A DNA stretch of 64,000 nucleotides from an uncultured Acidobacteriota bacterium (GCA_963700145.1 OY969474.1:5152001-5216000); one strand, 5' to 3'; shown: positions 27,222 to 52,662, counted from the stretch's first letter. The notes: generated by a model from the letters alone, not told the origin. Numbers and translations are program-made.

Positions 27222-28043
27222 TCAGGGAGAGCTAGGCGGGATCGCCAGGCCGGTCTCCCTGACCAGGTCTGCGAAAGCGGCCGGCGGCGTCGCGCGAAGC
27301 CGTTCCATCAAGGAGGTTTCGGCGGTCTCGACCGACGCCAAGAAGTGCGCGAGGTCCTGGTAGGCGAGGCAGCTGGGCTCCCGCACGCAGAGAACGGCCA
27401 AGTGCACGCCGGTCTCCTCGTCAGGGGCCGTCGCGCTGCCGAGGATCAGCGAGGCGGAGACCGCCGAGGAGCCGGGTGCTCCCCACAGGCCGAGGTATCT
27501 CCCGCTGCGGAGAGGGATTCCACGGTCGTTTCTGCCCACCCAGCGCCAGCCGGTGAAGCTGCCGCGGGTCGGGCGAAAACCTAGCCCGAGAGCCACGGTC
27601 AGCCGGAAGCGGAGATGCTCCGCGGAGGGCTGCTCGTGGATCAGCGGGGAGAAGGCTTCGGCGTAGATCAGCGCCCCCGGGCGGGCTCCATCGGGTGAGT
27701 ACGTGACCAGGGTCGCCCCCGCCGCGGCCGACCAGGCCCAGCCCTCCTTGTCTGGGATCTGCGCGATCATCGAGCGGCCGAGTGGGACGTTCTGGGCATC
27801 CGGCTCGGCGGAAGCCGTGCCGCTCGGCATGGCGTTCAGGTCGCGCGCGAACTGCGTCGTGGGCTCTCCGGCGCGCCTCGCGCGCGCGGCGCTCTGGTAC
27901 TCCGGAAAGAGCGGCTCGGCGCGGAACGTCGGGAAGGCGAGCCGGCGCGGCTCGCGAGCGGCCGGCTGGCAGCCGCCGGCCAGCGCGGCCGCGAGGGCCA
28001 GGGCGGCGAGGCGGCGTCGAGCGGAGGCGATCGGACTGTTCAT
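27222..28043 (-). CDS. Hypothetical lipoprotein, last gene of the vWA/tubulin operon
   Basis: ATG overlaps the upstream stop (TGATG); MNSPIASARRRLAALALAAALAGG-C lipobox with a possible RR signal. Confidence 0.7.
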   Translation of the reverse strand: MNSPIASARRRLAALALAAALAGGCQPAAREPRRLAFPTFRAEPLFPEYQSAARARRAGEPTTQFARDLNAMPSGTASAEPDAQNVPLGRSMIAQIPDKEGWAWSAAAGATLVTYSPDGARPGALIYAEAFSPLIHEQPSAEHLRFRLTVALGLGFRPTRGSFTGWRWVGRNDRGIPLRSGRYLGLWGAPGSSAVSASLILGSATAPDEETGVHLAVLCVREPSCLAYQDLAHFLASVETAETSLMERLRATPPAAFADLVRETGLAIPPSSP

Positions 28044-31765: not shown

Positions 31766-34700
31766 GGCCGGCAGGAGACGGCGGCAGGTCCAGCACGGTG
31801 GCGGCGAGGTCGCGGCCCAGCTCCTCGTAGCCGGTCAGCGGGTTGACCGGCGGGGCCAGGGAGCGCGACTCCTGCGACAGCGGGAACATGCGGTCGTCCG
31901 GCATCGTCGGACGGTTGTGGAACGACTCGAAGCGGCGCAGGTTGCGCAGGCTGTTGACCCGGATCCCCTGGACGAGTGAGAGCATGTAGGCGGCGTTAGG
32001 GCGCACGCCGACCGGGCGGACGTCGAGGGTCTCGGTCATCGGGCACTCCTGGCGCAGCTCTTGCCGAGTGCGGCGGTAGAGGTCCTCGACGCCGTCGTGA
32101 AGGACCAGCGTCGCATCCGCCAGCAAGCGTACGTTGTCGGGGTCGAGGCCCTCGTACCCCTTGAAGCCGGCGCCGAAGCCGAGATTGGAGTAGTAGCGCG
32201 CCACGAAGCGCACGAGCCGCGGCCCGACCTCGCCGGCGAAGAAGTGCTGATCGGAGATCGGCTCGCGGACCAGGTCTTCGAAACGGGACCGGCAGTAGGC
32301 GAGGATCCGATTGGTGTCGGCCAGGCAGGCCCGTTCTCGCCAGGCGGCGAACCCGCCTGCCCGCTCGATCAGACCCGGGACCTCGCGGATCACGTCGTCG
32401 CCGATGCGGCGCTCGAAATAGCCGTGCAGCATCTCGGGGTCGATCAGGCGGTCGGCGGGGGTCCGGCCACGGCCTTCGAAGAGACTGCGCAGGTCCTCGC
32501 GGCGCTCGCTGCCGTGCCCCATCGTGGCGCGCACTCCCAGCTCTTCGCTCCTCCGCGCCAGCGTCGCCGCCTGCACGTCAAGGCTGCGCACCAAGCGGTA
32601 GGCGAGGTTGGCGTCGGCGAGGGCGCGCTCGAAGACCGTAGCGGCGAAGCCGCGCGTGGCCACGGCGCCGGTCAGCTCCAGACGGCTCTCGAGGAACGAC
32701 CGCACCGAAGTGCGCCCCTCCCGCTCCGGATGGCCACCCGCTCCCCAGAAGAAGGCGCGGACCTCCTCCGCCATCCCCTCGATGGCGCCGGCCAGGGCGC
32801 GCAAGCGGCGGCGCGCGAACCAGCGCAGCAGGGCCCACGCCGCGCTCCAGAGGACCAGGCCGCCGGAGATGGCTCCGCCTGGACCGAGCAGCCACTCCAG
32901 GAGACCGGGCCGCAGGTGGAGGTCGAGCAGGTAGGCGACGCTTTGAGCCAGAGGGGCGCCGAGGACCAGGCTGAGCAGAGCCCAGACGGCGAGCCCCAGG
33001 TGGATGGGGGAGAGGTCCGGCTTGCGCTCCGCCGCCGCCAGCACGAGGCGCCGCGAGCGGCTGAGCGGTCCGAGCGCGGGGATCGTATGGCGCTCGCACA
33101 GCGCTTCCCGGCCGCGGCGCTGCTTCTCCTCGCGCTGGAAGCTCTCCTGCGTGGTCATCCGCAGACGATGGAAGGCGGCCTGTGCCGCCTTCAGACCGCC
33201 GGCGCCGGCGTAGTCCTCGATCAGGTGGTCGCCGTAGGAACGTACCCGCTCGACCGCCTTGCCCACCAGCCGCGACGTCTCCAGGCGCAGCTCGTCCACC
33301 AGCTCGTCGACCCGGCCCAGGCGGCCGGTCAGCTCGCTCCAACACGCCCAGATCTCGCGCCTCAGCTCGTTCTCGAAGCCCTCGTCGAAAGCTTTCAGGA
33401 CTTCGCCCGAAAGGGTGGCGAGGCCGAGCTGGACGCGGCCCTGGACCCGTTGCGCCAAGCCCTTCCCCGCCTGCAGCGTCAGGTCCCCCAGGACCTGCCG
33501 CGCCTGATGGGCCAGCCTCGGCAGAGCCGGGGGCTCCAGCGCCTCCGGCTCCTCGATCCGCGCGTCTTCGCCCTGCTTGAGCTCCGCCAGGCACTCCCGT
33601 GCCAGGCGGTTGGCCAGGTACTCGCGGCTGCGCAGGGCCGGAAAGTCGATCTCGTAGCAGGCGAACGACGAGAAGAGGTCGCCGCCGCCGGCGCTGGCGG
33701 AGGTCTGGCGCAGCCAGTCGTCCTGGGCGAGGTCGTTGCGGATGTGGAACGAGATGAAGTCCCGCGTCTGGCGCAGGGCGTCGGCCAGGCTGAGGGTCGC
33801 CGTGTCGGTGACGCGGCTGTTGACGAAGATCTGGGAGATGCTGCGCCGGCCCGCGGGGAGCACGCACTCCACCCAGCGGCGGATGCCGTGGACGGCGTCG
33901 ATGATCGCGGCCTCCTCGCAGCGGCTGACGTCTAGGTCCTCGCCCTGGAACGGATCGGCCGGATGCGGCATCCAGAGGATGGGGGTGACGCAAAGACAAC
34001 GGTCGAACCCCACGCGGTAGGACTCGAAGATGGGAGTGAAGGCCCGCAACAGCTCGGCGTGCAGCTCGCGCAGCACGTGGCGCATGGCCTCCCGGGTGAA
34101 CGCCTCGCTCATGTCGCCGACGACGAAGACGGTGAGCCGCGGCGGCTGGCGGGTCGGCCGGTTGCGGTAGCGGGTGAGAAAACGGAAGCCGTACAGCTCG
34201 CGGACCTGGCGGTTGAGCGCCGCGCGCAGCGGCGCGAAGAGCTCCTTGGCCCGCCCCTCCATGCCTTCGCCGCGCTCGGCGATGCAGAGGTCGGCGAGCA
34301 GCGGGCTTGGCCGCAGCGCGCCGGACGGCGCCGCCGAGCCGACCGGCCAGCCCTCCTCGGTCGCCTGCGCGGCCGGCGCGAAGCCGAGCACCGCCAGCCG
34401 GCGCTCCAGCCACTGGCGCGGAGACTCCTCTTGCGGATGGTCGACTTCCAGCCCGCGGAGAAACCGGCTGGGCTCGCCGCACAGCTCCGTCTCCGCCGCC
34501 GAGCCGGCGGCGCGGCGGGGCATTTCAGGGAGAGCCTCCTCGCCGTCGGGACGGCGCGCCTCCTTGAGCGGGTGCACGACGATCTCGCCGAGCACCTCGA
34601 GCGACTGCCGCAGGGCCTCGGTCAGCTCATCGCGCCGCCGCGTCTCCTCCAGGAGGTTGTCGTTGGGATCCCCGACCCGCTCGCGTTGCAGGTCCACCCA

Positions 34701-35744
34701 CAAGCGGACCAGACCGCCGTGCAGGAACCGCCCGAACTCCCGCAGCCGCTCGGTCAGGAGCTGGACGGTCCGTTCCGGCACACCCTCGCGGTCGTCCCGG
34801 TCGAAGAGCCCCAACTGCAACGGATGCGGCGCGAGAAGAGAGAAGATGCCGTCGCCCGAGCGACCGTGGCCGCTCGCCCAGCCGGTGGCTTCCCACTCAT
34901 GGCCGAGGAGCTCGGCGGGATCGAGAGGCGAGGCCAGGTCGCCGGGCTGGCGCTGGAACGGCCCCGGGCTCCTGATCGCCGGCGGCGCGCCCTCGCCGCC
35001 CTGCAGCCACTCGTTCCAGCCCTGGAGCGGGAGCTCCATGACCGTTTCCAGGAAACGCGCCGCCCGGCGCATGGCCTTCTTCTCCGCTTCGTCGACGAGC
35101 GCGGGGACGGGCACGTCCTCTCCGCCCGCAGGCTCGCCGCCGGCCGCGCTCATCCAGCCCCAGGGCGACGGGTCCCGCCCGTCGAGCAGGGCGCGGCAGC
35201 GGTCGACGCAGGCCAGCAGGGCGTGCGGGCTGTGCCCCTGCCGCACCCGGTTGAGCAGCGGCGTGATGAAGAGGTCGACCTCCTGCAGGCGCTGCGCGAG
35301 GTGGTGGAGCCGCTCCGCCGCCACGATGGGATCCGGATCGAGCCGGAGCCATTCGAAATAGCGCAGCCGCCGCGACTGCGTTTCGTGCCCCTCCTCGTCG
35401 ATCTCCACCTCGACGACGCCCGCGTCGCGCGGCAGCGCGACCTGGTAGCACCCGTCGCGGTAGCGCACGAGACCGAGCGAGCGCACGACGGCGAGGTTGA
35501 GAGCCAAGGACGGCAGGTCGCTGTCCCCGAGGTGACCGGCGATGCGCACCGTCTCCCGTTCGAACGGGCGCCAGCCGTTGGCGCCGGGTGCCGAGCGCAC
35601 CGCCAGCAGCCGCAGGTTGCCGAGCGAGACGTCCGCCCCGGAGAGGCGGAGCCCGGACCAGTCGTCGCCGAGACGCTCCAGCGTGGCGAGACCGAAGCGG
35701 CCCACGCCGACGACGATCACCGGCGCCGGGAAGACCTCGGGCAA
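31758..35744 (-). CDS. Large degenerate tubulin/FtsZ-like protein with coiled coil and two TM segments
   Basis: N-terminal VIVVGVGRFG Rossmann loop; VFVVGDMSE where GGTGSG is expected; two hydrophobic segments in the C-terminal third. Confidence 0.6.
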   Translation of the reverse strand: MPEVFPAPVIVVGVGRFGLATLERLGDDWSGLRLSGADVSLGNLRLLAVRSAPGANGWRPFERETVRIAGHLGDSDLPSLALNLAVVRSLGLVRYRDGCYQVALPRDAGVVEVEIDEEGHETQSRRLRYFEWLRLDPDPIVAAERLHHLAQRLQEVDLFITPLLNRVRQGHSPHALLACVDRCRALLDGRDPSPWGWMSAAGGEPAGGEDVPVPALVDEAEKKAMRRAARFLETVMELPLQGWNEWLQGGEGAPPAIRSPGPFQRQPGDLASPLDPAELLGHEWEATGWASGHGRSGDGIFSLLAPHPLQLGLFDRDDREGVPERTVQLLTERLREFGRFLHGGLVRLWVDLQRERVGDPNDNLLEETRRRDELTEALRQSLEVLGEIVVHPLKEARRPDGEEALPEMPRRAAGSAAETELCGEPSRFLRGLEVDHPQEESPRQWLERRLAVLGFAPAAQATEEGWPVGSAAPSGALRPSPLLADLCIAERGEGMEGRAKELFAPLRAALNRQVRELYGFRFLTRYRNRPTRQPPRLTVFVVGDMSEAFTREAMRHVLRELHAELLRAFTPIFESYRVGFDRCLCVTPILWMPHPADPFQGEDLDVSRCEEAAIIDAVHGIRRWVECVLPAGRRSISQIFVNSRVTDTATLSLADALRQTRDFISFHIRNDLAQDDWLRQTSASAGGGDLFSSFACYEIDFPALRSREYLANRLARECLAELKQGEDARIEEPEALEPPALPRLAHQARQVLGDLTLQAGKGLAQRVQGRVQLGLATLSGEVLKAFDEGFENELRREIWACWSELTGRLGRVDELVDELRLETSRLVGKAVERVRSYGDHLIEDYAGAGGLKAAQAAFHRLRMTTQESFQREEKQRRGREALCERHTIPALGPLSRSRRLVLAAAERKPDLSPIHLGLAVWALLSLVLGAPLAQSVAYLLDLHLRPGLLEWLLGPGGAISGGLVLWSAAWALLRWFARRRLRALAGAIEGMAEEVRAFFWGAGGHPEREGRTSVRSFLESRLELTGAVATRGFAATVFERALADANLAYRLVRSLDVQAATLARRSEELGVRATMGHGSERREDLRSLFEGRGRTPADRLIDPEMLHGYFERRIGDDVIREVPGLIERAGGFAAWRERACLADTNRILAYCRSRFEDLVREPISDQHFFAGEVGPRLVRFVARYYSNLGFGAGFKGYEGLDPDNVRLLADATLVLHDGVEDLYRRTRQELRQECPMTETLDVRPVGVRPNAAYMLSLVQGIRVNSLRNLRRFESFHNRPTMPDDRMFPLSQESRSLAPPVNPLTGYEELGRDLAATVLDLPPSPAGHD

Positions 35745-35746
35745 TC

Positions 35747-38700
35747 TCAGCCCCTCGCCGGGACGTCGGCGGCGGAGGCTCCGTCCCCGGGAGGCGGGGC
35801 CGGCACGGCCGCGGTCTCAGCCGCTTCCGCCCCCCCGTCGCCGGTCCAGAAGCGCCGCGGCACCGCGGTCCGCGCCGGCCCGCTGCGCAGCTTCTCCAGC
35901 AACTCGTTGAGCCGGTCGTCCGCCAGCGGGCGGAACAGCTGCTGGAAGCTCTTCGCCACGCTCCCCGGCTGATCGGGGTTCTCCAGCGCCGCCCACACCT
36001 CGCAGAAGGTCTCGAGGATCTTGAGGCTCTGAACGAGACTGGCCTCGGCGTCCGCGGGCGTCAGGTTGGCCGCGTTGGCGCCGAGGTCGTCGCCCAACGT
36101 CCGCTGCTCTACGGTGACGTTGCTCAGCCGATCGTGGAGCTTCTCCAGCGCCTCCTCCAGGCGCTTGTAGGCGTCGGCGTAGTCCTTGAGCTTCTCCTGC
36201 TGCACCGGCGTACGGTTGGGGCCGTACTTGTTGCGCAGCTCGTCGTGGTTGCTCCGCCAGCGGAAGGGCAGCTGGACGACCTCGGCGAGCACCTCCGGCG
36301 CCAGCCCCTCGCGCACCGCCCGCAGCATCTGCTGATACGGGAGATAGGTGACCTTCTCCGACTCCAGCACCTCCGGCAGGCGCTGGATCGAGTCGGCCAG
36401 GGTCTCCCCGAGACGGGTGAGGCCGTCGTCGCCCAGCTCGCCGTCGTCGCTCACGCCGTCCCAGTCCGGATCGGTGAGGCAATACTTGCCGCCGCGCCGG
36501 ACGATGAACTTCGGCCCGCCGTCGGGGCGCGGGGTGGTCAAGAGGGCCGCGAAGTTGACAACGTGGTTGCGCAGCAGCTCCTGGCGGTGGTTCTCCTGCG
36601 CGCTGTCGGGGTCGAGGTCGGGGAGCACGTCCTCCCAGTTGTGGTCGATGTGCAGCACCTTCGGCCGCTTGGCGAGCGCCTTGAAGCGCTCGTACTCGGA
36701 CTTCATCTCTTTCATCCGGCCAAAGACGTACAGCGGGACGTTGAGGACGGCGCGGTAGAAGATGATCTCCTTGGGGTTGGTCCATCCGGTGGTCACCCAG
36801 GTGAGATTGGGATCGGCGCTGCGGATCGCCTCCTCGATGGCGCTGCTCTTGAAGTTCTCGTCGATGGCGGCGACGAAGACGTTGTCCGGCCGCACGCCGC
36901 CGTGCTGGTCGCGCCCCTCCTCGTAGACGCAGAGCAGCGACGCCTTCTCCTTGACCAGGCGCTTGATCTTGTCCCGCAGGTAGTCGCTGTGCTTCTCGTC
37001 CTTGAGGTCGACCTCGACGGGCTGATAGCGGTAGGTGGAGAGGAGCTCGCGGATCGCCTTGTCGCCGCCGGCCCGCACCAGCGGGGTGTTGCTGCGGTAG
37101 AGCGCGCGGTAGACGACCTCGAGCTCCAGCGCGTCGGAGAGGGTCAGCCCGTCGCGCCGCGCGCGGTCCGGGGAGTGGGGATCGCCGCCGATCCAGGCGG
37201 CGAGGTGCTTTTCGACGTGGTCGCGCAGCGCGGTGAAGAGCTTGTCGAGGTCGGCGCTGGTGGCGCCGCCGCGGCGCACGCTCATCGCCGTCACCGTGTC
37301 GCTGAGCAGCACCTGGATCTCGCGGTTGCTGAGAGAGAGGTCCGGCGAGTCGGCGATCTTGTCCTCGAAGTAGAAGTCCCACATCCGCCGGCCGTCCTCG
37401 ATCTGCAGGGCCTCGGCGTCGAGCACGTACTGGTTGGCCGACGAGCCCTTGCCGCCGTCTTCGCGCAGCTTGCGCAGCCGGTTGAGCTGCTCGGTCTCGA
37501 GCTGGTCGAAGCCCTTTTCCAGCTCGCGTTGGGTGGTGGCGAACTTGTTGAGGTTGTCGCGGAGGTCCCCCAGGCTCTCGATGAAGAGCTGGGTCACGAT
37601 CTCCATCGCCCGGTCGATGGCCTGGGCCTGCAGCGACTCGAGGAGCGCCGGGATGTCGTTGGCCCTGAGCTTGTCCGTGTCCTTCACCTCGCCGAGGTCG
37701 AAGTCCGAGGTGCGCTCGGGAGGCTTGACCTCCCATCGCACCCGCTCGAGGATGGACAGCACGGCATAGCGCTTGGCCGCCAGGTCCACCTCGCCCGCCT
37801 CGTCGTTGAGGAACGCCAGCTCGACCAGGGAGTCCATCCCCGGGTAGCGGGAAGCTCCCAGCTTGTAGCCGCCCTTGAGGATCCGTATGCCGATGGCCTT
37901 GAACTCGTCGAGCCAGACCGCGGCGCGGGTCCGCGCGTCGTAGCCGCGGTTGATGCCGGCGGCGGTCGGAGGGTCCTCCTCGGCGCGAACCTCGATGGCC
38001 TTGCGCGCTTGCTGCAGCAGGCCGGCCGGCTCCTGCTGGTTGTCGCTCGAGATCGCCGGCAGGACGATGGCGCCGATCGAGTAGCTCATGCCCTCCCTCG
38101 CCACCTGTTCCTGGTCCTCCTTGACCCGATCCGGCCTGAAGTCCCTGCCGGTGCCGTCCGGCAGCGGCACCTCGCCCGCGCGGTGGCCGTGGCGGAACAG
38201 GCTGACGAAGCGCTTGATCTCGCTGGTCTGCAGCTCGCACGCGGCCAACAGGCGGACCCGCTTCATGTACAGGCGGTCGATGAGCCTTTCGCGCTGGTCC
38301 TTCTCCTTCTTGTGGAAGTCCGCCACGTGCACCGGTTTCTCGTTCCTCTCGTCGCCGAGGGCCACCTCGAAGAACGGCTCGGGCACGCTGCGCAGCGTCG
38401 TGTAGGAGGCGTCGCCGGGGATCGACCGCAGGAAGCTCGCCCGCATCAGCGACAGGGCCGCGGCTTGCGAGCAGTACTCGACGAGACCGTCGACCGGCAC
38501 CAGCAGCACGGCCGCGCCGTAGGAGCCGTAGAAGGTGGTGAAGCCGATGATCCCCTTGCCCTCGAAGTCGTGCGGCACGAGGAAGCGCTGGTGTTGGGTG
38601 AAGTTGTCGTAGTCGGAGGCCTGGTACCCGTAGAGCGGCGAGAAGAACTGGAGGTAGAGGCCGTCCGCCGCGGCGTCGACCGGGTCGGGGACCGTGAACG

Positions 38701-39556
38701 ATTGCGGCTTGTCCACGATGTAGACGAACTCGAACGGAGGCTGGCGCACGGTCCGCTTGGAGACGTCCGAGGGGTCGTAGTGGAAGGGGATGCCTTCTTC
38801 GGGGTAGAAGCGCGACTCGGGCGCGCCCAGCTTCATCAGGTACTCGGTCTCCTTGAGCGCCGCGTAGGCGTTGGCGAAGGTGCCGTCGCGGTTGATGCCG
38901 GTCTTGTCCTCGAAGACCGCGGGCTGCACGGCGACGCCGATCAAGCGCGGCTTGCCCAGCTCGCTCGCCAGGTCGCGCAGCATGTAGGCGATGGGGAGGT
39001 GGCAGCCCGAGCCCGTGCCGCCGGCCACCGAGTAGCAGATGACGATCCGGATCTCCTGGCTGTCGAGCCGCCGGTGCCCGTGCTCGTGGGACTTGAGGTC
39101 CTCCAGCAGCTTGCGGAACTTGGGCAGGAAGTCCTTGTGCTTGACCTGATAGAAGACGCCGAGCCGCGATTCGATGCGGATCTGACCGGCGCCGGCCGTG
39201 TCGCCGGCGCGGAAGCGGTAGTTCTGCGGCACCCACTGCGTGAAGTAGGGATCGGCCTCCAGAAAGAGCTTGCCGGAGGCGAGGTCGGCGTACTCCTCCT
39301 TCTCGAAGTCGCTGATGAGGAACGTTCTGTCCGCCATCTCGCGGAAGCCTTCGAGCTCGTTGACGTTGGTGTCGACCATGGCGAACTTGACCAGTGCCTT
39401 GTAGCGCTCTTCGTAGTCGGGCCGCCGCTGCAGGTGCCGGGCGACGCGGTTGACCAGGCGGCAGCCGCAGCCGCCCAGGCCGACGAAGAGCGTCGGGCAG
39501 ACCGCGCTCGGCTTGGTCAACATCTCTTCGATCACCACCTTCTGATGTCTCGGCAT
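35747..39556 (-). CDS. Tubulin/FtsZ-like GTPase (Tubulin_2 / FtsZl1 type) with long C-terminal extension
   Basis: SD GGAGGAG; LFVGLGGCG, VDTN, GAGQIRIESRL, SVAGGTGSG, ANAYAALKE. Confidence 0.9.
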   Translation of the reverse strand: MPRHQKVVIEEMLTKPSAVCPTLFVGLGGCGCRLVNRVARHLQRRPDYEERYKALVKFAMVDTNVNELEGFREMADRTFLISDFEKEEYADLASGKLFLEADPYFTQWVPQNYRFRAGDTAGAGQIRIESRLGVFYQVKHKDFLPKFRKLLEDLKSHEHGHRRLDSQEIRIVICYSVAGGTGSGCHLPIAYMLRDLASELGKPRLIGVAVQPAVFEDKTGINRDGTFANAYAALKETEYLMKLGAPESRFYPEEGIPFHYDPSDVSKRTVRQPPFEFVYIVDKPQSFTVPDPVDAAADGLYLQFFSPLYGYQASDYDNFTQHQRFLVPHDFEGKGIIGFTTFYGSYGAAVLLVPVDGLVEYCSQAAALSLMRASFLRSIPGDASYTTLRSVPEPFFEVALGDERNEKPVHVADFHKKEKDQRERLIDRLYMKRVRLLAACELQTSEIKRFVSLFRHGHRAGEVPLPDGTGRDFRPDRVKEDQEQVAREGMSYSIGAIVLPAISSDNQQEPAGLLQQARKAIEVRAEEDPPTAAGINRGYDARTRAAVWLDEFKAIGIRILKGGYKLGASRYPGMDSLVELAFLNDEAGEVDLAAKRYAVLSILERVRWEVKPPERTSDFDLGEVKDTDKLRANDIPALLESLQAQAIDRAMEIVTQLFIESLGDLRDNLNKFATTQRELEKGFDQLETEQLNRLRKLREDGGKGSSANQYVLDAEALQIEDGRRMWDFYFEDKIADSPDLSLSNREIQVLLSDTVTAMSVRRGGATSADLDKLFTALRDHVEKHLAAWIGGDPHSPDRARRDGLTLSDALELEVVYRALYRSNTPLVRAGGDKAIRELLSTYRYQPVEVDLKDEKHSDYLRDKIKRLVKEKASLLCVYEEGRDQHGGVRPDNVFVAAIDENFKSSAIEEAIRSADPNLTWVTTGWTNPKEIIFYRAVLNVPLYVFGRMKEMKSEYERFKALAKRPKVLHIDHNWEDVLPDLDPDSAQENHRQELLRNHVVNFAALLTTPRPDGGPKFIVRRGGKYCLTDPDWDGVSDDGELGDDGLTRLGETLADSIQRLPEVLESEKVTYLPYQQMLRAVREGLAPEVLAEVVQLPFRWRSNHDELRNKYGPNRTPVQQEKLKDYADAYKRLEEALEKLHDRLSNVTVEQRTLGDDLGANAANLTPADAEASLVQSLKILETFCEVWAALENPDQPGSVAKSFQQLFRPLADDRLNELLEKLRSGPARTAVPRRFWTGDGGAEAAETAAVPAPPPGDGASAADVPARG

Positions 39557-39608
39557 TCCCTTCTCCTCCCGGCGGATTCCGTCGAGTTAGACGATCGATT
39601 GCCGGCGA

Positions 39609-42377
39609 CTAGCCGACCTGCCAGCCCGCGGCCTTGCCTTCTTCATGGGTCTCCCACTCTTCGAGGGGACGGAGCAGCTTCGCCTTGTGCAGCTTGACCG
39701 CGCGCAGCTTGGGCCCGCCGTCGCCGTCGGAGATGGCCTGGGCCTCCTGCCAGACCAGGCTGCCGAGGCGGCCCTGCCCGTCCGGCACCGCCAGGAACAG
39801 AGCCTTGCCAGCGGCGATGCCGAAGAGCCGGCCGCGGAACCTTTCGGGCTCGCTCTCCGCCTTGGCTTTGACGTCGCCGTCGGCGAGCAGGACGATCTGC
39901 GAGCGCGCGACGTCGCGGCTCGCCTGGAGCAGGAGCTGCACGGTCTCCTGGTACCGCCCTCCCGGCAGACCGAAGCGCAAGGGGTTGGAGCGGAGCCAGG
40001 CGCCGGCTCGGCGAGGCAGCCGCAGCGCCTGGCGCACCAGGCGCGTCACCTCGCTCTTCGACTTGTCGAGCTCGGCCGCGTCGCCCCACTCGGTCCAGAC
40101 CAGCGGCCTGAGCTTCGCCGCCAGGGCGTCGGCCTTGAGGAAGCTGCTGTTGCGGAACATGTTGACGCCATAGAGGATGAGCAGGAGCAGCAGCAGGACC
40201 GCCAGCGCCGCGAGGACGCGCGGTCCGTAGCAGGCCCAGAAGCCGGCCGGCTCGACCTCGACGCGCACCGGCACGACGATCGGCTCCGGCGCCCGCGCGC
40301 CCGGCGGCAGGGTCTGGCCGCCCGCCGGCGCGAGCCCGAGGCGAGTGGCGAAGGAGCCTGTCGCGCAACAGCGGTCCGGGAGCGCGCGCAGCCGCAGCGG
40401 CGCCGCGCCCGGGCCGGCCGCGAAGTCGCGGCGGAGGAGCGGCGTGCCCTGGTCGTCGCGCAGCAGCTCGGCGCGGCCTTCGCCGGCGAACCCGAGGACC
40501 AGGTCATCCGGGTCCTCGGGCCACGCTTCCGACTCCTGCGGGGTCTCCACGACACCGCGGAGCGCCACGGTGTTCTGAAAGTTGCCGCGCACCGTCACCG
40601 GCAGGTCCCGCATCCGGCCGCCGCGGACCTTGAGCGACAGCTCTTTGGGGACCGCGATCCGGTAGTCCAGCGCGAAGCTCAAAGGCAGCTCGATGTTGGG
40701 AAGCCGGCGGCCGCCCTCGGCGGTGAGAACGAGGCGGAGGACCGTGTTCACCGAGCGGGCGATCGGCTGCGGGCCGCAGTACGGGGAGACGCGGAGCACG
40801 AGGTTGTAGGTCTGACCCGGCGTAATCGACTGGGGCTTGCCCTCCGGGACGCCGCTCAGCTCCACGGTCACGCACGCCGGCAGGTCGGCGCGCTCGCCGA
40901 GCTCGAGGTGGCCGGAGGCGCGCGGGAAGTTCCCGGCGAGGAGGAACGGGCTCTGCGCCAGGTCCCCGGGACGCAAGTGACCGAAGGCGAGGCGATCGGG
41001 TTGGGGCCGGATTTCTACCGAGGAGACTTCGAGCGAGACCGGGGTGCCGCGCAGCTTGATGGTCTCGCCGGAGGAAAAGCGAAGAGAGACTTCCGGCTGG
41101 AACTCGTAGAGGCCTTTTTCGAGATGGCTGCGCGGCAGCCCGAACCGCGCCTGGCCGGGCGCGAGCTGGTTCACGCCGGCGTCAACCGGCGGCTCGCTCG
41201 GCCGGTCGGCGCGGCGGACCTGCACCCGGGCGGTCAGCTCGCCGCCGGTCACGTCGCCTCCCACCACTTGGTCATCGGCGTTGACCAGCTCGACGATCAC
41301 GCACACCGACGCCCCCACATCGACACTCTCGACCTCGGCTGCCGGAGCCCGGCAGGTTCCCAGGCGGACCGCCCGCCGCACCGTGAGGCGGTACTCCGGC
41401 AGAGCGACCACCTTCCAGCGCTCGCCCCCGCCCGCCACCGTCACCTCCACCGGCTCGGCATCCGGCCGGTAGTCGAGAGCGGCGAAACGGAAAACCCTCC
41501 CCCCGGCGCCGTACTGATGAGTGCCGGCCCGCGCGCTGCCCAGCGTCCGCGGCGCCCTGCCGCGCCGGCTGCGGATGACGAAGGAGAGATTGGGTCCGGC
41601 GTCTGGGGCGATGGCGAGGAGGCGCACGCGCTCGGCACCGCGGTGAGCCGCCAGATGAGTCTGGCGTGGCGAAAGGAGGTACGCCTCATATCCTTGCGAG
41701 CGAGACACGGCTGCGGCGAAGGTGTGGAGGATCGAGGTCGGATCTCCGGGGTTGGCTTCGATCGCCTGCCCCCCGGTGCGCTCCGCCAGACGTACGAGAG
41801 CCGTCGAATACTGCTCGCCACGGAAGCGCAGCAGGTAGAACTGGAACAGCCCGTCGCCGTGGGAGCGCAGCCCGCTCAGGAAGTCCTCGACCGATGGCTC
41901 CTCCTCCGTTGCCGGCTCGCACTGGCCATCGGTCAGGAACAGGACGACCTGCGCCACGTCTGTCTGGTAGGCCGCGTCCAGCAATTGGCGCGTCGCCGCG
42001 AGCGCCGAGCGGCACGGCGTGTGCCTGGCGGTGTAGGCAGCGAGACCCTTCAGGATCCCGTCGATTCGCGCGCGGTTTTGACGCAACGGCTCGATCGGCG
42101 GCGGCGGCGCTCCCTCGCGGGGACCGTTGAGACGCACGACTGACACCTCGTCGCGGTCGTCCAACATGCTGACCAGGGAGCGCGCCGCGAAGACGCCGAG
42201 CCGGTCGCGATCCGTCCCCTGCATGCTCCCGGAGTCGTCGAGCACCAACACGAACTGCGCCGAGCGCCCTCCGGAGGACCGGGCCGTTGGCTGCGCGGCG
42301 GCGGGAGGCGACGAGAGGACGGTGAAGAGACACGCCAGAGAGATGACCGCCGGAGAGATCAGTCGCTGCGAGCGCAC
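39609..42377 (-). CDS. Exported, membrane-anchored vWA-domain protein
   Basis: Signal peptide; MIDAS DDSGSM...TP...FLTDG; beta-rich stalk; TM VLAALAVLLLLLLILYGV; cytoplasmic tail. Confidence 0.88.
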   Translation of the reverse strand: MRSQRLISPAVISLACLFTVLSSPPAAAQPTARSSGGRSAQFVLVLDDSGSMQGTDRDRLGVFAARSLVSMLDDRDEVSVVRLNGPREGAPPPPIEPLRQNRARIDGILKGLAAYTARHTPCRSALAATRQLLDAAYQTDVAQVVLFLTDGQCEPATEEEPSVEDFLSGLRSHGDGLFQFYLLRFRGEQYSTALVRLAERTGGQAIEANPGDPTSILHTFAAAVSRSQGYEAYLLSPRQTHLAAHRGAERVRLLAIAPDAGPNLSFVIRSRRGRAPRTLGSARAGTHQYGAGGRVFRFAALDYRPDAEPVEVTVAGGGERWKVVALPEYRLTVRRAVRLGTCRAPAAEVESVDVGASVCVIVELVNADDQVVGGDVTGGELTARVQVRRADRPSEPPVDAGVNQLAPGQARFGLPRSHLEKGLYEFQPEVSLRFSSGETIKLRGTPVSLEVSSVEIRPQPDRLAFGHLRPGDLAQSPFLLAGNFPRASGHLELGERADLPACVTVELSGVPEGKPQSITPGQTYNLVLRVSPYCGPQPIARSVNTVLRLVLTAEGGRRLPNIELPLSFALDYRIAVPKELSLKVRGGRMRDLPVTVRGNFQNTVALRGVVETPQESEAWPEDPDDLVLGFAGEGRAELLRDDQGTPLLRRDFAAGPGAAPLRLRALPDRCCATGSFATRLGLAPAGGQTLPPGARAPEPIVVPVRVEVEPAGFWACYGPRVLAALAVLLLLLLILYGVNMFRNSSFLKADALAAKLRPLVWTEWGDAAELDKSKSEVTRLVRQALRLPRRAGAWLRSNPLRFGLPGGRYQETVQLLLQASRDVARSQIVLLADGDVKAKAESEPERFRGRLFGIAAGKALFLAVPDGQGRLGSLVWQEAQAISDGDGGPKLRAVKLHKAKLLRPLEEWETHEEGKAAGWQVG

Positions 42378-42475
42378 GCCACCTAAGACACGGCGTGCCC
42401 TCCTTTGTAGGTCCAGCAGAGCCGTCGCACCGCCAAGCGCTAGAACCCTTCTTCGCGGTTGGTGTCTTTGATGGA

Positions 42476-44701
42476 GTGCCGAACCTGCGGCGGGCGATCG
42501 GTCTGGCCACCGTCCTCCTCCTGCGCAGCTCCGCCGGAGAGGCGCGGGACCCGGTCACGATCGCGGCCGGCCTTCCGGACGGCATGTACTGGCGTCTGGC
42601 GTCTGCTCTCGACGGGCTCGATCCCCAGCTCGCCGTGAAGGCCATCTCGACAGGAGGCTCGACGGAGAACTTGCAACGGCTCGAAGCGGAGGAGGTCCGC
42701 TTCGCGCTCGCGCAGCAGGACGTCGTCAGCGAGCACTTCCGCAACCGGCCAGACACGGAGGTGCGCGTCGTGGGGCGAGTGTTCTACGACTATCTGCACA
42801 TCTTCGTCCGCAAATCCGTCCACTTGGAGACGGCCGGCGATCTGGTCAAGCTCAAGGCCTGGATAGGAGAGCCCGGCAGCGGGACTCGGCTGACCGCCAG
42901 CCGGTTCTTCGACAGCCTTGGAATGCCGGTCTCGTCGCTCGCCGAACGCGTCCAACCGTCCACTGGGAGCTCAGCGGGTAGGCCGGAAGCCCAGTCGACC
43001 ACCTGGAGCGGTCTGGCGGGAGAGTTCCGCAGCGACCGGTTGGATGCCGCCATGATCGTCACTACGCCGGGACTGCCGCTTCTCTGCCGGATGATGAGAT
43101 CGGAAACAGTCTCCCTCTTCTCCCTCGACCCGAAGACGCTGCGCCAGCTGACGAAGGAGGAGGAGACGACGTTCCGGGCGCAGACCGCCATCGGCCGGAT
43201 CCCGGCCGGCACCTACCCGCACCAGTCCGCTCCGGTGGCGACGATCTCCGTTCCCGTCCTCCTCCTGGCCCGCTTCGACGAGAACCCGCGGATCGCCCTC
43301 CGCCTCCTGGAGGCCACGCACGCAGCCTGGGAAACGCTGACCGGCGAAGAGCGACGAGCGGTCGACGGCGAGCCGGGTTGCAACTTCTCGAGCAGCGCTC
43401 CGCGGGCCGCTCCGCTCAGCGCTTCCGGCCTGACCATGCTGCAGGGCGTGCCCGTCGGCGAGCCTCTCTGGCCGCGGATCAGCCGGGCGATGGTGCGGAT
43501 CCTCCTGCTCGTCGCGACCGCCGCCCTGGCCTTCTGGGCCTATCGCCGCCGCTGGCCTGCCCTGGTTCGCAGTCTCTGGCAGCAGGACAGGCTGCCGTTC
43601 ATCTTGGCCCTGCTCCTGGCGTTGGCGATCGCGATGGTGACGGTGACGACGTTTCTCCTGGAGCGCGGGATCAACGAGAACTTCTCGACCATCGGCGAGT
43701 CGTTCTGGTCCATCACGCTCTACCTGTTCAGCGGTCTCGAGAGTCGCAACCCCTATACCGACGGAGGCCGGATCGTTGCGGCGCTCGGTCTGCTCCTCGG
43801 TCCCGCGTTCTTCGCCGTGCTGTCCGGCTGGTTGGCCCGGTTCTTCATCCGGAGGGACAAACGCATGCCTCACGATCTCAGGAACCACTTCCTGCTCCTG
43901 AACTGGAACACGCGGGCCTCGGAACTGGTGCGCGAGCTCCATCACCCGAGCGTGCGCGAGCGGGAGGGAACGTTCGTCGTCGTCGTGCTCACCGACGACG
44001 AGTCGCTGGAGATCCGCCGCTTCAAGGAGGCGGGCAGCGGCCGGGACGCCGCGTTCGAGGACTTCTACGTCAGCATCGGCGACCCGACCGACGAGCGAGC
44101 GCTGAGAAACGCCAATGCGGCCGAGTCCCGGTCCGTCCTTGTCCTTGCCGACGATCAGCACGGAGACGAGCGTACGATCCGCTCCATCCTGATGCTGCGC
44201 AAGATCGCCCGCGACGCGGGTCGCACCGATCTGCACGTCGTGGTGGAGCTGCTGAATCCGGCCAACGGCGCTGCTCTCGATGAGCTGGCCGATGACTTCC
44301 CGGGGTTGCTGGAGCGCATCTCGGGTCTCCAGGTGCGGACGCTCCTGCTCTCGCAGGCGGCGCTCAACGCGGGGATCGTCGACTTCTACTCCGACCTCCT
44401 GCAGATCTCCGAGCGGACGAACGAGATGTACACCCTGGACGTCCCGCTCGCCGCGATCGGCATGCCCTTCCGCGAGTACGCCGCTCTGGTCCTGCGGTCG
44501 AATACCGACGATCCGCTCCTGCCGGTCGGTCTACAGAGGAAGATCGACGGTAGGCCGCGCATCCTCACCAACCCCCGCCAGGGAGAGCCCGGCTGGATCA
44601 TCGAGGCGGGCGACCGCCTGCTGGTCATCGCCTATCAGCCGCCACTGACGCCCGCGCTGCCGGTGCCGGATGGGGCGGAGCTGGTGCGAGCCGTGGTCTA
44701 G
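42476..44701 (+). CDS. TAXI-type solute-binding domain fused to a 2-TM ion-channel pore and RCK domains
   Basis: TAXI: STGGSTENL, ALAQQD, GEPGSGTR, IPAGTYP. Pore: FSTIGESFWSITLYLFSGLE...PYTDGGR. RCK: HFLLLNWN, GDPTDERALRNAN. Start at GTG 42476 inferred. Confidence 0.8.
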   Translation: MPNLRRAIGLATVLLLRSSAGEARDPVTIAAGLPDGMYWRLASALDGLDPQLAVKAISTGGSTENLQRLEAEEVRFALAQQDVVSEHFRNRPDTEVRVVGRVFYDYLHIFVRKSVHLETAGDLVKLKAWIGEPGSGTRLTASRFFDSLGMPVSSLAERVQPSTGSSAGRPEAQSTTWSGLAGEFRSDRLDAAMIVTTPGLPLLCRMMRSETVSLFSLDPKTLRQLTKEEETTFRAQTAIGRIPAGTYPHQSAPVATISVPVLLLARFDENPRIALRLLEATHAAWETLTGEERRAVDGEPGCNFSSSAPRAAPLSASGLTMLQGVPVGEPLWPRISRAMVRILLLVATAALAFWAYRRRWPALVRSLWQQDRLPFILALLLALAIAMVTVTTFLLERGINENFSTIGESFWSITLYLFSGLESRNPYTDGGRIVAALGLLLGPAFFAVLSGWLARFFIRRDKRMPHDLRNHFLLLNWNTRASELVRELHHPSVREREGTFVVVVLTDDESLEIRRFKEAGSGRDAAFEDFYVSIGDPTDERALRNANAAESRSVLVLADDQHGDERTIRSILMLRKIARDAGRTDLHVVVELLNPANGAALDELADDFPGLLERISGLQVRTLLLSQAALNAGIVDFYSDLLQISERTNEMYTLDVPLAAIGMPFREYAALVLRSNTDDPLLPVGLQRKIDGRPRILTNPRQGEPGWIIEAGDRLLVIAYQPPLTPALPVPDGAELVRAVV

Positions 44702-44712
44702 CGGAACGGGAC

Positions 44713-46674: not shown

Positions 46675-46760
46675 GCGGCGATTGTATCCACGCGGGGGGA
46701 CCTGGGGCGCCGCTGGGCCGGCGGCTGGCGCTGCGCCGCGCGGCAGCGCAGCGCCGCGGT

Positions 46761-52652: not shown

Positions 52653-52662
52653 GGCGATCGCC

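Follow-up and report, generated by a model that had tools for sequence, protein, structure and literature searches.

What does a protein do that joins a solute-binding domain of the TAXI type to an ion-channel pore, and what is the meaning of its position next to a tubulin-like operon? These questions are raised by a gene in a stretch of 64,000 nt from an uncultured Acidobacteriota bacterium (GCA_963700145.1, OY969474.1:5152001-5216000), which is referred to below as the window. An initial annotation had described the gene product as a TAXI receptor fused to a non-canonical pore and to RCK domains. Our analysis confirmed that the three-part architecture of TAXI domain, pore and RCK is real. 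With moderate confidence, we consider the protein to be an RCK-gated cation channel that is probably not K+-selective and that would be modulated by a periplasmic ligand.

Gene layout and the periplasmic TAXI domain

The ORF lies on the plus strand, ends with a stop codon at 44701 and has an in-frame GTG at 42476, the position at which an identical database protein of 741 aa (P0002) also starts. Because the frame remains open 5' of this codon as far as a GTG at 42395, translation could begin up to 27 codons further upstream. The order of the domains is signal peptide, periplasmic TAXI domain, an extra helix (TM0), a 2TM/P-loop pore and one RCK resembling those of CASTOR and DMI1; the AF2 monomer model of the 741-aa channel has a mean pLDDT of 74.9. 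The features of the gene are as follows.

42476..44701, plus strand: whole gene of the TAXI-TM0-pore-RCK channel, 741 aa, GTG start (ORF, Pfam, identical database protein)
42476..42544, plus strand: signal-peptide-like N-terminus, residues 1-23, with RR, a short hydrophobic run and SSA-GEA (read by eye from the sequence)
42548..43375, plus strand: periplasmic TAXI (NMT1_3) solute-binding domain, residues about 25-300 (Pfam, profile, Foldseek, alignment)
43376..43486, plus strand: putative TAXI-to-TM0 linker, residues 301-337, with the invariant C302 (alignment)
43487..43543, plus strand: TM0, extra helix, residues 338-356, predicted to run from periplasm to cytoplasm (hydropathy, AF2 model)
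43601..43657, plus strand: TM1, outer pore helix, residues 376-394 (hydropathy, KCNQ2 alignment, AF2 model)
43691..43747, plus strand: pore helix and filter, residues 406-424, with F418-S419-G420-L421-E422 at 43727-43741 (alignments, tetramer model)
43772..43849, plus strand: TM2, inner helix, residues 433-458 (hydropathy, tetramer and AF2 models)
43851..43867, plus strand: candidate internal translation start, GGAGGG at 43851-43856 and ATG (M464) at 43865-43867 (alignments, Shine-Dalgarno counts)
43880..44668, plus strand: single RCK, residues 469-731, CASTOR/DMI1-RCK1-like (sequence and profile search, Foldseek, alignment)

The TAXI motifs claimed for the N-terminal part were borne out. Pfam NMT1_3 matched residues 49-270 with an E value of 4.8e-20 and 72.8 bits (cut-off 27), and NCBIfam TIGR02122 scored 77.3, under its cut-off of 84.35; thus the domain is a member of the Pfam family that falls outside the NCBI subfamily model. 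The TAXI protein 1us4 of T. thermophilus was matched with E values of 3.4e-13 by the single sequence and 3.4e-20 by the family profile. In Foldseek searches with the AF2 model, in which the pLDDT of this domain is mostly 85-95, TAXI proteins were matched with E values of 1e-18 to 1e-15, the values for 1us4 and VcGluP 9ibo being 9.5e-19 (TM, target, 0.68) and 1.2e-16, respectively. The alignment with 1us4 showed that GxY (Y38), S62, AQQD (Q80/Q81) and LH (H108) are retained; the domain shares the fold and the GxY, S, AQ(N/Q)D and H motifs with the TRAP-type TAXI proteins TtGluBP (1us4) and VcGluP (8s4j); the key residues of VcGluP are Y45 and Q93 according to the available part of its description. 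C302 in the linker and C204 in the domain are both invariant, and a disulfide between them is possible.

Unlike in the TRAP proteins, the partner of the TAXI domain here is an ion-channel pore. As the initial annotation had indicated, there is no TRAP permease nearby: DctM (PF06808) was matched in the 5.46-Mb genome only at 1.13 and 3.96 Mb, while the window is located at 5.15-5.22 Mb, which places the channel gene more than 1 Mb from any TRAP permease. TAXI-GltS proteins show that TAXI domains are also fused to other non-TRAP membrane proteins, and the word 'channel' is absent from that paper in the portion of its text available (PMC12344293).

Forms without a TAXI domain are nested at three places in the family tree. 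Since these relatives have lost it, we regard the domain as accessory; the RCK would be the conserved core gate, and TAXI appears dispensable and is more likely a modulator than the gate. This does not support the extracellular-ligand-gated channel envisaged earlier, and any effect of a ligand on gating would probably be a modulating one. As a separate remark, the TAXI-less relatives do not need an extracellular domain for their core function.

Pore region and filter

Three hydrophobic segments (residues 338-356, 376-394 and 433-458) were found, in line with the TM segments reported before; K/R-rich stretches occur in the loop 357-372 and after TM2, and the turret is acidic. Judging from this hydropathy and charge, the signal peptide would export the TAXI domain to the periplasm, TM0 would bring the chain back to the cytoplasm, TM1, the pore helix with the filter and TM2 would form a pore in the normal K-channel orientation, and the RCK would hang in the cytoplasm.

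Pfam gave no match of the 741-aa channel to Ion_trans_2 at E<=0.01 and none to Lig_chan (PF00060), and one homologue (L031) scored 17.3 bits with Ion_trans_2, below the cut-off of 22.5. The 94-aa pore alone matched the KCNQ2 pore with an E value of 7.7e-6, and the family profile matched the KCNQ4 pore (E 6.3e-9) and MthK (E 6.6e-7). The KCNQ2 alignment places T-T-I-G-Y-G-D opposite L-F-S-G-L-E-S, and the earlier reading of the filter as LFSGLE in place of TVGYG is therefore correct.

The residues S419, G420, L421 and E422 are invariant across 25 aligned homologues. SG[LF]E occurs in all 40 of the loci examined in Acidobacteriota and Planctomycetota, and SG[LFMIVY]E in 106 of 132 aligned pores of database representatives, none of which (0/132) has T[VI]GYG. 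Conservation is strongest in the pore helix, the filter and the inner helix, which are near-invariant down to 25-29% overall identity. These alignments mark the filter replacement as a signature of the family. Because F-S-G-L-E stands family-wide for T-[VI]-G-Y-G, with an invariant Glu at the second Gly, the channel is predicted not to be K+-selective, and the family offers a natural experiment in rewriting the filter at the second Gly of GYG.

A tetramer was modelled from four copies of residues 340-469 (TM0 plus pore), together with 3 controls. The ipSAE was 0.42, against 0.00 for the best of the 3 controls. Among proteins of known structure, 20 of 30 solved pairs of one chain attain this mark, as does 1 of 23 solved single chains. 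As K-channel tetramers have already been solved, the score shows likeness and may come from the method having seen them. Contact agreement between the runs was at least 78% and the partner pLDDT at least 66. In the model the interface is made by the pore helix and filter (residues 411-423) and TM2, and a bundle crossing is placed at about residues 450-454. The pore region of the monomer model (residues 331-460) is of moderate confidence, with a pLDDT of about 56-83 per block.

The CASTOR/POLLUX/DMI1 channels likewise lack TVGYG; their filter contains an S/A-G pair and an acidic residue that is essential. According to the available text of PMC6697748, the CASTOR filter is ADS(A)GNHA, the channel is Ca2+-selective and the mutation D265N abolishes its activity; the filter here reads FSGLE[SD] instead, a comparison with the published motif and not an alignment. 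By analogy with the acidic residue of CASTOR, F-S-G-L-E might give a non-selective or divalent-permeable cation channel. The analogy with regard to Ca2+ is loose, because the filter acid here sits at another position than the CASTOR Asp.

GluR0 had been named as the precedent for the fusion. In GluR0 the pore interrupts the binding domain (S1-M1-P-M2-S2), which is of a different family; the pore is inverted compared with K channels and carries a K+-type filter, and there is no RCK. What the present protein shares with GluR0 and iGluRs is a periplasmic-binding-protein fold fused to a P-loop pore, which is predicted to be tetrameric here too, i.e. an extracellular small-molecule sensor on a channel. 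The precedent is therefore valid for the binding-protein/pore fusion but not for the topology, since here the complete TAXI domain forms one uninterrupted block ahead of the extra helix TM0 and of all the other TM segments, and the pore would have the K-channel orientation. A 2005 review describes GluR0, in the part of its text available, as a fusion of a glutamine-binding-protein core and a KcsA-type channel (PMC2234077).

RCK domain and a candidate internal start

Directly after the inner helix, from residue 471 on, the AF2 model shows alternating strands and helices. The best solved RCK matches were those of the plant nuclear Ca2+ channels CASTOR/POLLUX/DMI1 (6o7c, 7vm8): DMI1 7vm8 was matched with E values of 1.2e-8 (single sequence) and 3.9e-17 (profile), and CASTOR with 6.3e-15 (profile). 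The DMI1 match concerns RCK1 only, the alignment spanning chain residues 5-237 of the 538-residue construct, and the query stops after one RCK. HFLLLNWN, the motif named in the initial annotation, lies opposite HVLILGWS of DMI1; the likeness to CASTOR/DMI1 thus stood, but each chain has one RCK and not several. TrkA_N, Slo-like_RCK and Castor_Poll_mid all remained under their Pfam cut-offs, the last scoring 18.3 against 26.7.

CASTOR differs from the present protein in having tandem RCK1-RCK2 and four TM helices and in lacking a binding-protein domain. Among its Ca2+ sites, the Ca(II)-site residue E493 (NCEFY) aligns with the invariant E650 (TNEMY), which suggests a candidate cation ligand in the RCK. 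The Ca(I) ligands D442/D444 align with N594/A596, and the Ca(III) side-chain ligands are not kept either, S345 being replaced by a variable Arg and D553/D554 lying beyond 'AY-PP'. For this reason we rejected a Ca2+ sensor with three sites as in CASTOR.

BK/Slo1, like the present protein with its TM0, has an extra N-terminal helix, S0, which puts the N-terminus outside. It also resembles the layout proposed for the present channel, an RCK gating ring below a P-loop pore (Foldseek E about 1e-12), and a tandem-RCK relative, P0068, matches BK best (E 1e-11, against 1e-4 for CASTOR); unlike the present channel, BK has a voltage sensor, a GYG filter and tandem RCKs and no binding-protein domain. The layout of MthK (PDB 1lnq, 6oly, 8djb) is similar in that a 2TM P-loop pore is followed by one RCK per chain, and its full-length chain aligns to the AF2 model over about 370 columns (Foldseek E 1.8e-14). 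MthK differs in that it has TVGYG, is K+-selective and has neither an extracellular domain nor TM0, and by sequence the present RCK resembles those of CASTOR/DMI1 more than that of MthK.

The candidate internal start, M464, is located six residues after TM2 and seven codons before the first RCK strand, and the Met-Pro at this TM2-RCK linker is invariant in both family alignments. Of 31 distinct sequences, 29 had a GGAG-like run of at least 4 nt at -18 to -4, compared with 26.5% of the other in-frame positions; for runs of at least 5 nt the figures were 11 of 31 and 6.8%. Arg was encoded by AGG or AGA in 20 of 36 cases at the Met464 site, against 16% of 1385 elsewhere. The Met is found in 80 of 99 single-RCK members and in 2 of 23 tandem-RCK members; the p value of 1e-10 (Fisher) overstates the evidence, because the Met contrast and the Shine-Dalgarno counts come from related sequences. 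The tandem-RCK forms may be one clade, and the R-E-K/E residues at the site could be kept for protein reasons.

According to the available text, MthK has a soluble RCK (M107-A336) that is expressed on its own and becomes part of the ring (PMC2573919); M107 is at the place in the TM2-RCK linker equivalent to Met464. By comparison with MthK, the position of Met464 after GGAGGG suggests that translation probably starts there to yield a second, soluble RCK polypeptide; soluble and tethered RCKs would then form an eight-RCK gating ring. Since single-RCK forms have retained the Met and tandem-RCK forms have lost it, the family provides a clean comparative test of the 'internal start' solution of MthK.

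Neighbourhood, function and family of the channel

The channel gene is divergent from an operon on the minus strand, with the following features.

42378..42475, no strand: divergent intergenic region, 98 bp, common to the channel and vWA genes (ORF ends)
39609..42377, minus strand: vWA membrane protein, 922 aa, first gene of the divergent operon (ORF, Pfam)
35747..39556, minus strand: Tubulin_2 (FtsZl1-family) protein, 1269 aa (Pfam)
28043..35816, minus strand: two further large operon ORFs, starts unrefined (ORF reading)

The vWA start is 98 bp from 42476, so that the head-to-head arrangement within 100 bp was seen correctly before. VWA_2 (E 3.9e-6) and Tubulin_2 (E 2.3e-46) were matched in consecutive minus-strand ORFs; of the two large ORFs, one, open over about 1352 aa, is matched by no Pfam model and the other, of about 1263 aa, contains a P-loop/DEAD-like region. 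The vWA protein has a signal peptide, a MIDAS DxSxS at residues 47-51 and one TM segment near residue 700, after which about 200 aa form a cytoplasmic tail. To our knowledge, no input to or function of the vWA/FtsZl1 tubulin-like system has been known since 2010. The operon was described by Makarova and Koonin in that year, and in the available main text of their paper protein kinases are members of FtsZl1 operons and the word 'channel' does not occur (PMC2875224). An anti-phage defence role was rejected, as PADLOC gave 0 matches for the channel, the vWA and Tubulin_2 proteins, the two large ORFs and the APH kinase. Scans of 42200-42700 and 44500-44900 for terminators and for promoters with a sigma-70-like consensus, which may not fit the host, found none. 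In the intergenic alignment of the window with L003 and L038, the window and L003 have a block in common just upstream of the start, which could be coding or regulatory.

Linkage to vWA/Tubulin_2 recurred, in one clade and facultatively: in the acidobacterial clade 8 loci were linked, 5 unlinked and 6 uninformative, and none of the 13 planctomycete loci was linked. Three arrangements were observed, namely divergent and adjacent (the window, L003, L038), divergent with two genes between (L001, L025, L031, L034, L040) and co-directional in the order kinase, channel, vWA, Tubulin_2 (L006). The linked loci are spread over the whole acidobacterial clade, with identities of 45-73% for the channel and 37-78% for vWA. 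All 3 other genomes of a class-level sample that have a full-length orthologous Tubulin_2 (57-58% identity) gave no channel match at E<=1e-20. Among ten unlinked genomes, five from the acidobacterial clade and five from planctomycetes, whose completeness is not given, a Tubulin_2 match was absent in five; G202 and G205 have the channel and no Tubulin_2 match. The channel is not a regular component of the vWA/FtsZl1 operon, and each occurs without the other.

Taken as a whole, the evidence is best explained if the gene encodes one subunit of a P-loop cation channel that belongs to the K-channel superfamily and is built as a tetramer, which we hold to be fairly probable. The channel would be gated mainly via the RCK, for which E650 suggests a cation as ligand; the TAXI domain would probably add modulation by a small periplasmic ligand, e.g. 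an amino acid or organic acid, and in the acidobacterial lineage the gene, kept beside the vWA/FtsZl1 operon, may be co-regulated with it. An ordinary K+ channel of the MthK/Kch type, with a divergent but K+-preferring filter, a role in K+ or membrane-potential homeostasis and TAXI as a sensor add-on, seems unlikely to us. The homology of pore and RCK to MthK, KCNQ and BK and the MthK layout of a single RCK with an internal Met fit it, and variant filters such as TVGYSI are listed among possible K+ channels in the available text of the 2005 survey (PMC2234077); but four of the five signature positions are altered (T to F, V/I to S, Y to L, second G to E), the change is conserved in two phyla and most representatives, which looks like selection and not drift, and CASTOR, the closest solved RCK match, also lacks TVGYG and is Ca2+-selective in the text available. 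That the pore is a non-conducting relic, and the protein a receptor or scaffold relaying TAXI ligand binding to the RCK and then to the vWA/FtsZl1 machinery, we regard as quite improbable. The gene does lie beside vWA/Tubulin_2 in 8 of 13 informative acidobacterial loci, and the vWA protein is likewise membrane-bound with a periplasmic domain and a cytoplasmic tail, but the near-invariance of pore helix, filter and inner helix is unexpected for a relic, the planctomycete genes are not tubulin-linked and yet lie beside MscS, and genomes exist that carry the channel without Tubulin_2. A pore for binding-protein-dependent uptake of an organic solute, by analogy with TAXI-TRAP and TAXI-GltS, is hardly credible: TAXI proteins normally feed transporters and TAXI-GltS fusions exist (PMC12344293, available text), but in the membrane the protein has a 2TM P-loop pore, whose homologues are ion channels, and not an elevator-type transporter, and TAXI-less forms persist.

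Compatible with the cation-channel reading is a claim about its role, i.e. that acidobacterial members of the family are dedicated to the vWA/FtsZl1 system as its signal input or effector, and that this system would be switched by ion flux, e.g. of divalents that serve the MIDAS site or FtsZl1 assembly. We consider this possible, with the balance somewhat against it. The scatter of the linked loci over the clade and the survival of adjacency through rearrangement favour it, while the five unlinked acidobacterial loci, the three Tubulin_2 genomes and the five of ten unlinked genomes mentioned above speak against it, and gene neighbourhood alone is weak evidence of interaction. COG2358, which we take to be the TAXI family, also has a bearing here. 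A stand-alone COG2358 protein, from Polaromonas, is tabulated in 1 of 56 FtsZl1 neighbourhoods, and the kinases known in these operons likewise favour a dedicated role, against which stands the absence of 'channel' from the main text as available (PMC2875224 and its supplement file 5). The channel offers a first concrete candidate input to this uncharacterised system, one that can be tested. A broader proposal, distinctly speculative and in our view improbable, is that the SG[LF]E family are two-sided Ca2+/divalent-permeable signalling channels, in which a metabolite at TAXI and a cation at the RCK control entry, that the ion signal triggers vWA/FtsZl1 membrane remodelling in Thermoanaerobaculia-like bacteria, and that the family is the bacterial kin behind the CASTOR/POLLUX/DMI1 RCK module. 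As an ancestry for the whole superfamily, the last part is weakened by P0068, a tandem-RCK member for which BK is a better match than CASTOR.

P-loop channels gated by RCK domains are well known from textbooks, as are channels fused to a binding protein. No known channel was found that combines a full external TAXI sensor and an internal RCK ring with a conserved filter of the non-potassium type; the family offers a compact system for the joint gating of one pore by an extracellular binding protein and an intracellular ring. Literature searches whose scope did not extend to about 1.7 million PMC articles and most subscription journals found no description of an architecture of TAXI with channel/RCK or of GluR0 with RCK; the family appears to be a large bacterial channel family that is seemingly undescribed. 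Older surveys of microbial K+ channels were queried with the canonical filter, as stated in the available text of PMC2234077, and would therefore have missed it.

The core profile retrieved 478 representatives of 50%-identity clusters at E<=1e-30. TAXI, pore and at least one RCK were present in 103 of the 151 representatives examined, which is the commonest architecture and agrees with the domain architecture first proposed. The sample of 200 other genomes of the class showed that the gene is rare there, with one good core match (G114, E 2.3e-53, open frame of 358 aa) and 12 weak partial ones (E 1e-27 to 1e-20), mostly to the RCK part of the profile only. An atlas look-up pointed to relatives in further phyla, as leads only, and a PF00060 label had been precomputed for a distant relative, P0041. 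In planctomycetes, the channel gene was located beside an MscS-type channel in 4 of the 6 loci examined.

Gene, domains and topology of the channel protein

At about 72% G+C, the window is full of long spurious ORFs; third-position GC tells the real ones apart. The gene placed at 42476..44701 by the initial annotation, head-to-head with the vWA gene and less than 100 bp from it, was recovered as described: a database protein of 741 aa (P0002) is identical to its product and has the same start. The reading frame is open back to 42395, and the start is uncertain by at most 27 codons. The features of this region are:

42476-44701, + strand: channel ORF, starting at an in-frame GTG
from 42377, - strand: vWA gene, 98 bp from the channel start
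downstream of vWA, - strand: 1269-aa Tubulin_2 protein, then two more large ORFs

In the Pfam search, residues 49-270 matched the periplasmic solute-binding domain NMT1_3 (TAXI; E 4.8e-20); the scores for TrkA_N, Slo-like_RCK and Castor_Poll_mid stayed below threshold, and Ion_trans_2 gave no match. The single sequence searched against solved structures matched the Thermus thermophilus TAXI protein 1us4 (3.4e-13), the KCNQ2 pore (2e-5) and MthK (1e-4), and its residues 469-731 matched DMI1 (1.2e-8) and CASTOR (3.2e-7); with a profile of 25 homologues the values were 3.4e-20 for 1us4, 3.9e-17 for DMI1, 6.3e-15 for CASTOR, 6.3e-9 for KCNQ4 and 6.6e-7 for MthK. Only RCK1 of DMI1/CASTOR is covered by the match, and therefore each channel chain has one RCK, the regulatory domain. 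The TAXI, transmembrane and CASTOR/POLLUX-like RCK parts read from the sequence were thus all confirmed, except that several RCK domains per chain had been proposed. With an AF2 model of the channel (mean pLDDT 74.9) as query, Foldseek gave alignments with TAXI proteins and with full-length chains of MthK, BK and GsuK, the latter spanning about 370 columns.

Hydropathy gives three transmembrane segments, 338-356 (TM0), 376-394 and 433-458. K/R residues are frequent in the loop between TM0 and TM1 and again just past TM2, and the turret is acidic. Because of this pattern and a signal-peptide-like N-terminus, we infer that TAXI is periplasmic, RCK cytoplasmic and the pore oriented as is usual for K channels. 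GluR0 differs in this respect: its pore is inverted and interrupts the binding domain.

Four copies of residues 340-469, modelled with the core alignment A2, gave pore contacts with an ipSAE of 0.42 (best of three controls, 0.00), which shows likeness to K-channel tetramers and may merely echo them, because such tetramers have already been solved. A pore thus does form in the model, and its absence would have spoken against the initial annotation. Of proteins solved as one-chain pairs, 20 of 30 reach this ipSAE mark; of those solved as single chains, 1 of 23 does. Contact agreement between tetramer runs was at least 78% and partner pLDDT at least 66, and the confident contacts in the tetramer model lie in the pore helix/filter (411-423) and the inner helix (about 432-461), the tightest pairs being at 450-454.

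The TAXI cleft motifs GxY, GS..N, ALAQ[NQ]D, LH and GSGT are kept in comparison with the glutamate-binding 1us4; Y45 and Q93 are described as key residues of VcGluP (PMC11574862). As initially noted, no TRAP permease is near the channel, DctM occurring in the genome only at 1.13 and 3.96 Mb. In a 30-row core-domain tree, from which four duplicates and four truncated rows were excluded, TAXI-less forms are nested among TAXI-bearing ones at three places (L006+L007; L029; L027+L031+L032, all fetched loci with channel homologues), so that the TAXI domain is, to judge from the tree, dispensable.

A rewritten selectivity filter

The 94-residue pore alone matches KCNQ2 at E 7.7e-6, and KCNQ2 TTIGYGD pairs with LFSGLES, which bears out the earlier reading of LFSGLE in place of a TVGYG-type filter. 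All 25 homologues keep S419, G420, L421 and E422 unchanged, and W-S-I-[TN]-x-Y-x-x-S-G-[LF]-E is present in 40 of 40 fetched loci, including L022 from the channel's own genome. These loci belong to Acidobacteriota (Thermoanaerobaculia MAGs) and Planctomycetota, with overall identity down to 25-29%. The A2 profile, searched against 1.84 billion cluster representatives, matched 7861 proteins at E<=1e-3, 3056 at E<=1e-10 and 478 at E<=1e-30. Architectures were scored in 151 proteins (the 150 matches listed plus P0041) with HMMs built from A1, the alignment of the channel with 25 homologues.

Table. Architectures among the 151 proteins scored
Architecture, number of proteins
TAXI+pore+RCK, 74
TAXI+pore+RCK+RCK, 26
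pore+RCK, 23
RCK, 8
pore+RCK+RCK, 6
RCK+RCK, 4
TAXI+TAXI+pore+RCK (TAXI match split in two), 3
RCK+RCK+RCK, 3
TAXI+RCK, 2
TAXI+RCK+RCK, 2

Of 132 aligned pores of representatives, 106 have SG[LFMIVY]E in the filter column, 117 have [ST]G[LFMIVY][ED] and none has T[VI]GYG. This conservation argues that the rewritten filter is a selected family character, not decay. Atlas clusters combining NMT1_3 and Slo-like_RCK, a lead only, are reported from Myxococcota, Acidobacteriota and Bacteroidota.

CASTOR, whose filter is ADS(A)GNHA, is Ca2+-selective and requires the filter Asp (PMC6697748). It resembles the channel in that its RCK is the closest solved match and its filter is also without TVGYG, but its filter acid is at another position and the analogy is loose. 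Since the nearest solved RCK thus belongs to a Ca2+-selective channel lacking TVGYG, we predict a cation channel that is non-K+-selective and possibly divalent-permeable. With the CASTOR construct numbering offset fixed by T323 and the DILGFENCE run, the essential Ca(II) ligand E493 aligns with the invariant E650 (TNEMY), which makes a cation site in the RCK plausible; opposite the Ca(I) residues D442/D444 stand N594/A596, and the channel RCK does not keep the side-chain ligands of Ca(III). The Rossmann GxGxxG position reads NWNxRA in the channel and GWSDKL in CASTOR.

No description of a TAXI-pore-RCK protein was found in the literature searched. A 2025 paper called a TAXI-GltS fusion unprecedented and does not mention channels (PMC12344293). 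A 2005 survey of microbial K+ channels would have missed the family, because the canonical filter was used as query (PMC2234077). The initial annotation was right in what it observed and in part of what it made of it. The protein is best placed with the ligand-gated tetrameric cation channels, from whose known members it differs in its family-wide rewritten filter, a probable MthK-like internal start and the facultative association with vWA/FtsZl1 in one clade.

A probable internal translation start

A Met-Pro pair (Met464 in the channel), invariant in A1 and A2, lies 6 residues after TM2 and 7 before the first RCK strand, and a GGAG-like run (GGAGGG at 43851-43856 in the window) stands upstream of the Met ATG. 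At -18..-4, 29 of 31 distinct sequences match the anti-SD over 4 nt or more, as do 26.5% of 17,502 other in-frame positions; for 5 nt or more the figures are 11 of 31 and 6.8%. Arg codons at the site are AGG/AGA in 20 of 36 cases, compared with 16% of 1385 elsewhere. After removal of 27 rows that were fragmentary or ambiguous, Met occupied the column in 80 of 99 single-RCK (<830 aa) and 2 of 23 tandem-RCK (>=950 aa) pore-bearing representatives. The nominal p of 1e-10 makes this contrast look stronger than it is, because the sequences are related, and the tandem forms may be one clade. Lys is the commonest residue there in tandem-RCK proteins.

To complete an eight-fold ring a single-RCK channel needs four extra RCKs, whereas a tandem-RCK channel does not. 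In MthK the ring is completed by a separately expressed RCK, M107-A336 (PMC2573919). The channel is like MthK in having a single RCK and a Met between pore and RCK, and the conserved Met is a probable MthK-like internal start. Four RCK-only family proteins of 256-269 aa (P0085, P0105, P0115 and P0175), two of which (P0085 and P0115) start exactly at the conserved Met, may come from separate genes for a soluble RCK, or may have been called where a contig is cut short.

Association with the vWA/FtsZl1 operon and other neighbourhoods

The window operon is of the vWA/FtsZl1 type described by Makarova and Koonin in 2010 (PMC2875224). In its vWA protein, a signal peptide is followed by a MIDAS motif that is intact (DxSxS, residues 47-51), one TM and a cytoplasmic tail. 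To score linkage, all loci were searched by tblastn with the window vWA, Tubulin_2 and next ORF as queries. The acidobacterial clade contributes 19 distinct loci: vWA adjoins the channel in 8 (L001, L003, L006, L025, L031, L034, L038 and L040), 5 are unlinked despite at least 3 kb upstream (L002, L004, L007, L036 and L037) and 6 are uninformative. Tubulin_2 was also seen in 6 of the 8 linked loci, and the contig ends in the other two. vWA and channel occur in three arrangements. They are divergent neighbours in the window, L003 and L038, and divergent with two genes between in L001, L025, L031, L034 and L040 (examined in L001, L031 and L034; for L025 and L040 taken from a 2.3-2.5 kb gap). The two intervening genes are the first of the vWA operon in several relatives, but the window lacks them at this place. 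In L006 the order is co-directional: kinase, TAXI-less channel, vWA, Tubulin_2. Protein kinases are known members of FtsZl1 operons (PMC2875224).

L006 6296-8758, + strand: Ser/Thr kinase bearing TPR repeats, the gene immediately 5' of the TAXI-less channel
L001 7785-9820, L031 7790-9696 and L034 976-2903, - strand: two conserved genes without Pfam match (about 255-280 aa; 378-422 aa) between vWA and channel

Operon-linked rows are scattered across the whole acidobacterial clade of the tree, and linkage was seen in none of 13 planctomycete loci, 11 of which extend 3 kb or more upstream. A sample of 200 genomes from the window's class contained three that encode an orthologous Tubulin_2 in full length (57-58% identity), and these had no channel match at E<=1e-20; 4 same-family genomes had neither gene. 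Ten unlinked genomes, their completeness not given, carry Tubulin_2 elsewhere in five cases and none in five. The proposed linkage to the tubulin locus thus holds for the eight acidobacterial-clade loci and fails for the unlinked and planctomycete ones, and each partner occurs alone: the association is clade-limited and facultative. We take COG2358 to be the TAXI family. One COG2358 periplasmic component lies beside FtsZl1 in Polaromonas, in 1 of the 56 neighbourhoods of Additional file 5 of the 2010 paper, whose main text has no occurrence of 'channel' (PMC2875224). A functional tie of the channel to vWA/FtsZl1 within the acidobacterial clade is possible, though we would sooner doubt it than assume it.

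In the L007 genome (G203), Tubulin_2 is at 47.0-48.1 kb on contig C24, and the unlinked TAXI-less channel is at about 13-14 kb on a record whose name ends in 24; should C24 and this record be one contig, about 33 kb would separate the two genes. G+C is 0.67-0.68 at window 36000-44000 (Tubulin_2 gene, channel region) and mostly 0.70-0.77 in the rest; this lower-G+C stretch may be an acquired island, because the four same-family genomes sampled lack both genes.

In six planctomycete loci (L010, L013, L014, L015, L018 and L020), the channel neighbours include a secretin (5 of 6), an MscS-type mechanosensitive channel (4 of 6) and an SdiA-regulated/phytase-like gene (4 of 6). In L015, 7 bp separate the end of the MscS gene from the start of the channel open frame. 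This context fits an ion-flux role.

Downstream of the window channel, a convergent sulfatase ORF (44713-47607, -) has 11 bp between the stop codons and is probably two genes, the sulfatase and a PhyH-like gene at 46761-47603; sulfatases also lie downstream in L036 (12396-13832, acidobacterial-clade) and L015 (7442-9628, planctomycete). The run at 47534-58521 (-) encodes an APH-type kinase that weakly matches TCAD9, a glycosyltransferase with two GT2 parts, and two radical-SAM/SPASM proteins, of which one is fused to GT2; it could be a modification or peptide-maturation cluster. A Mutator-family transposase ORF (2988-4307, +; PF00872, E 4.8e-33) and a second, inverted 439-codon ORF (5370-6689, -) with identical codon-position GC are probably two copies of one IS element.
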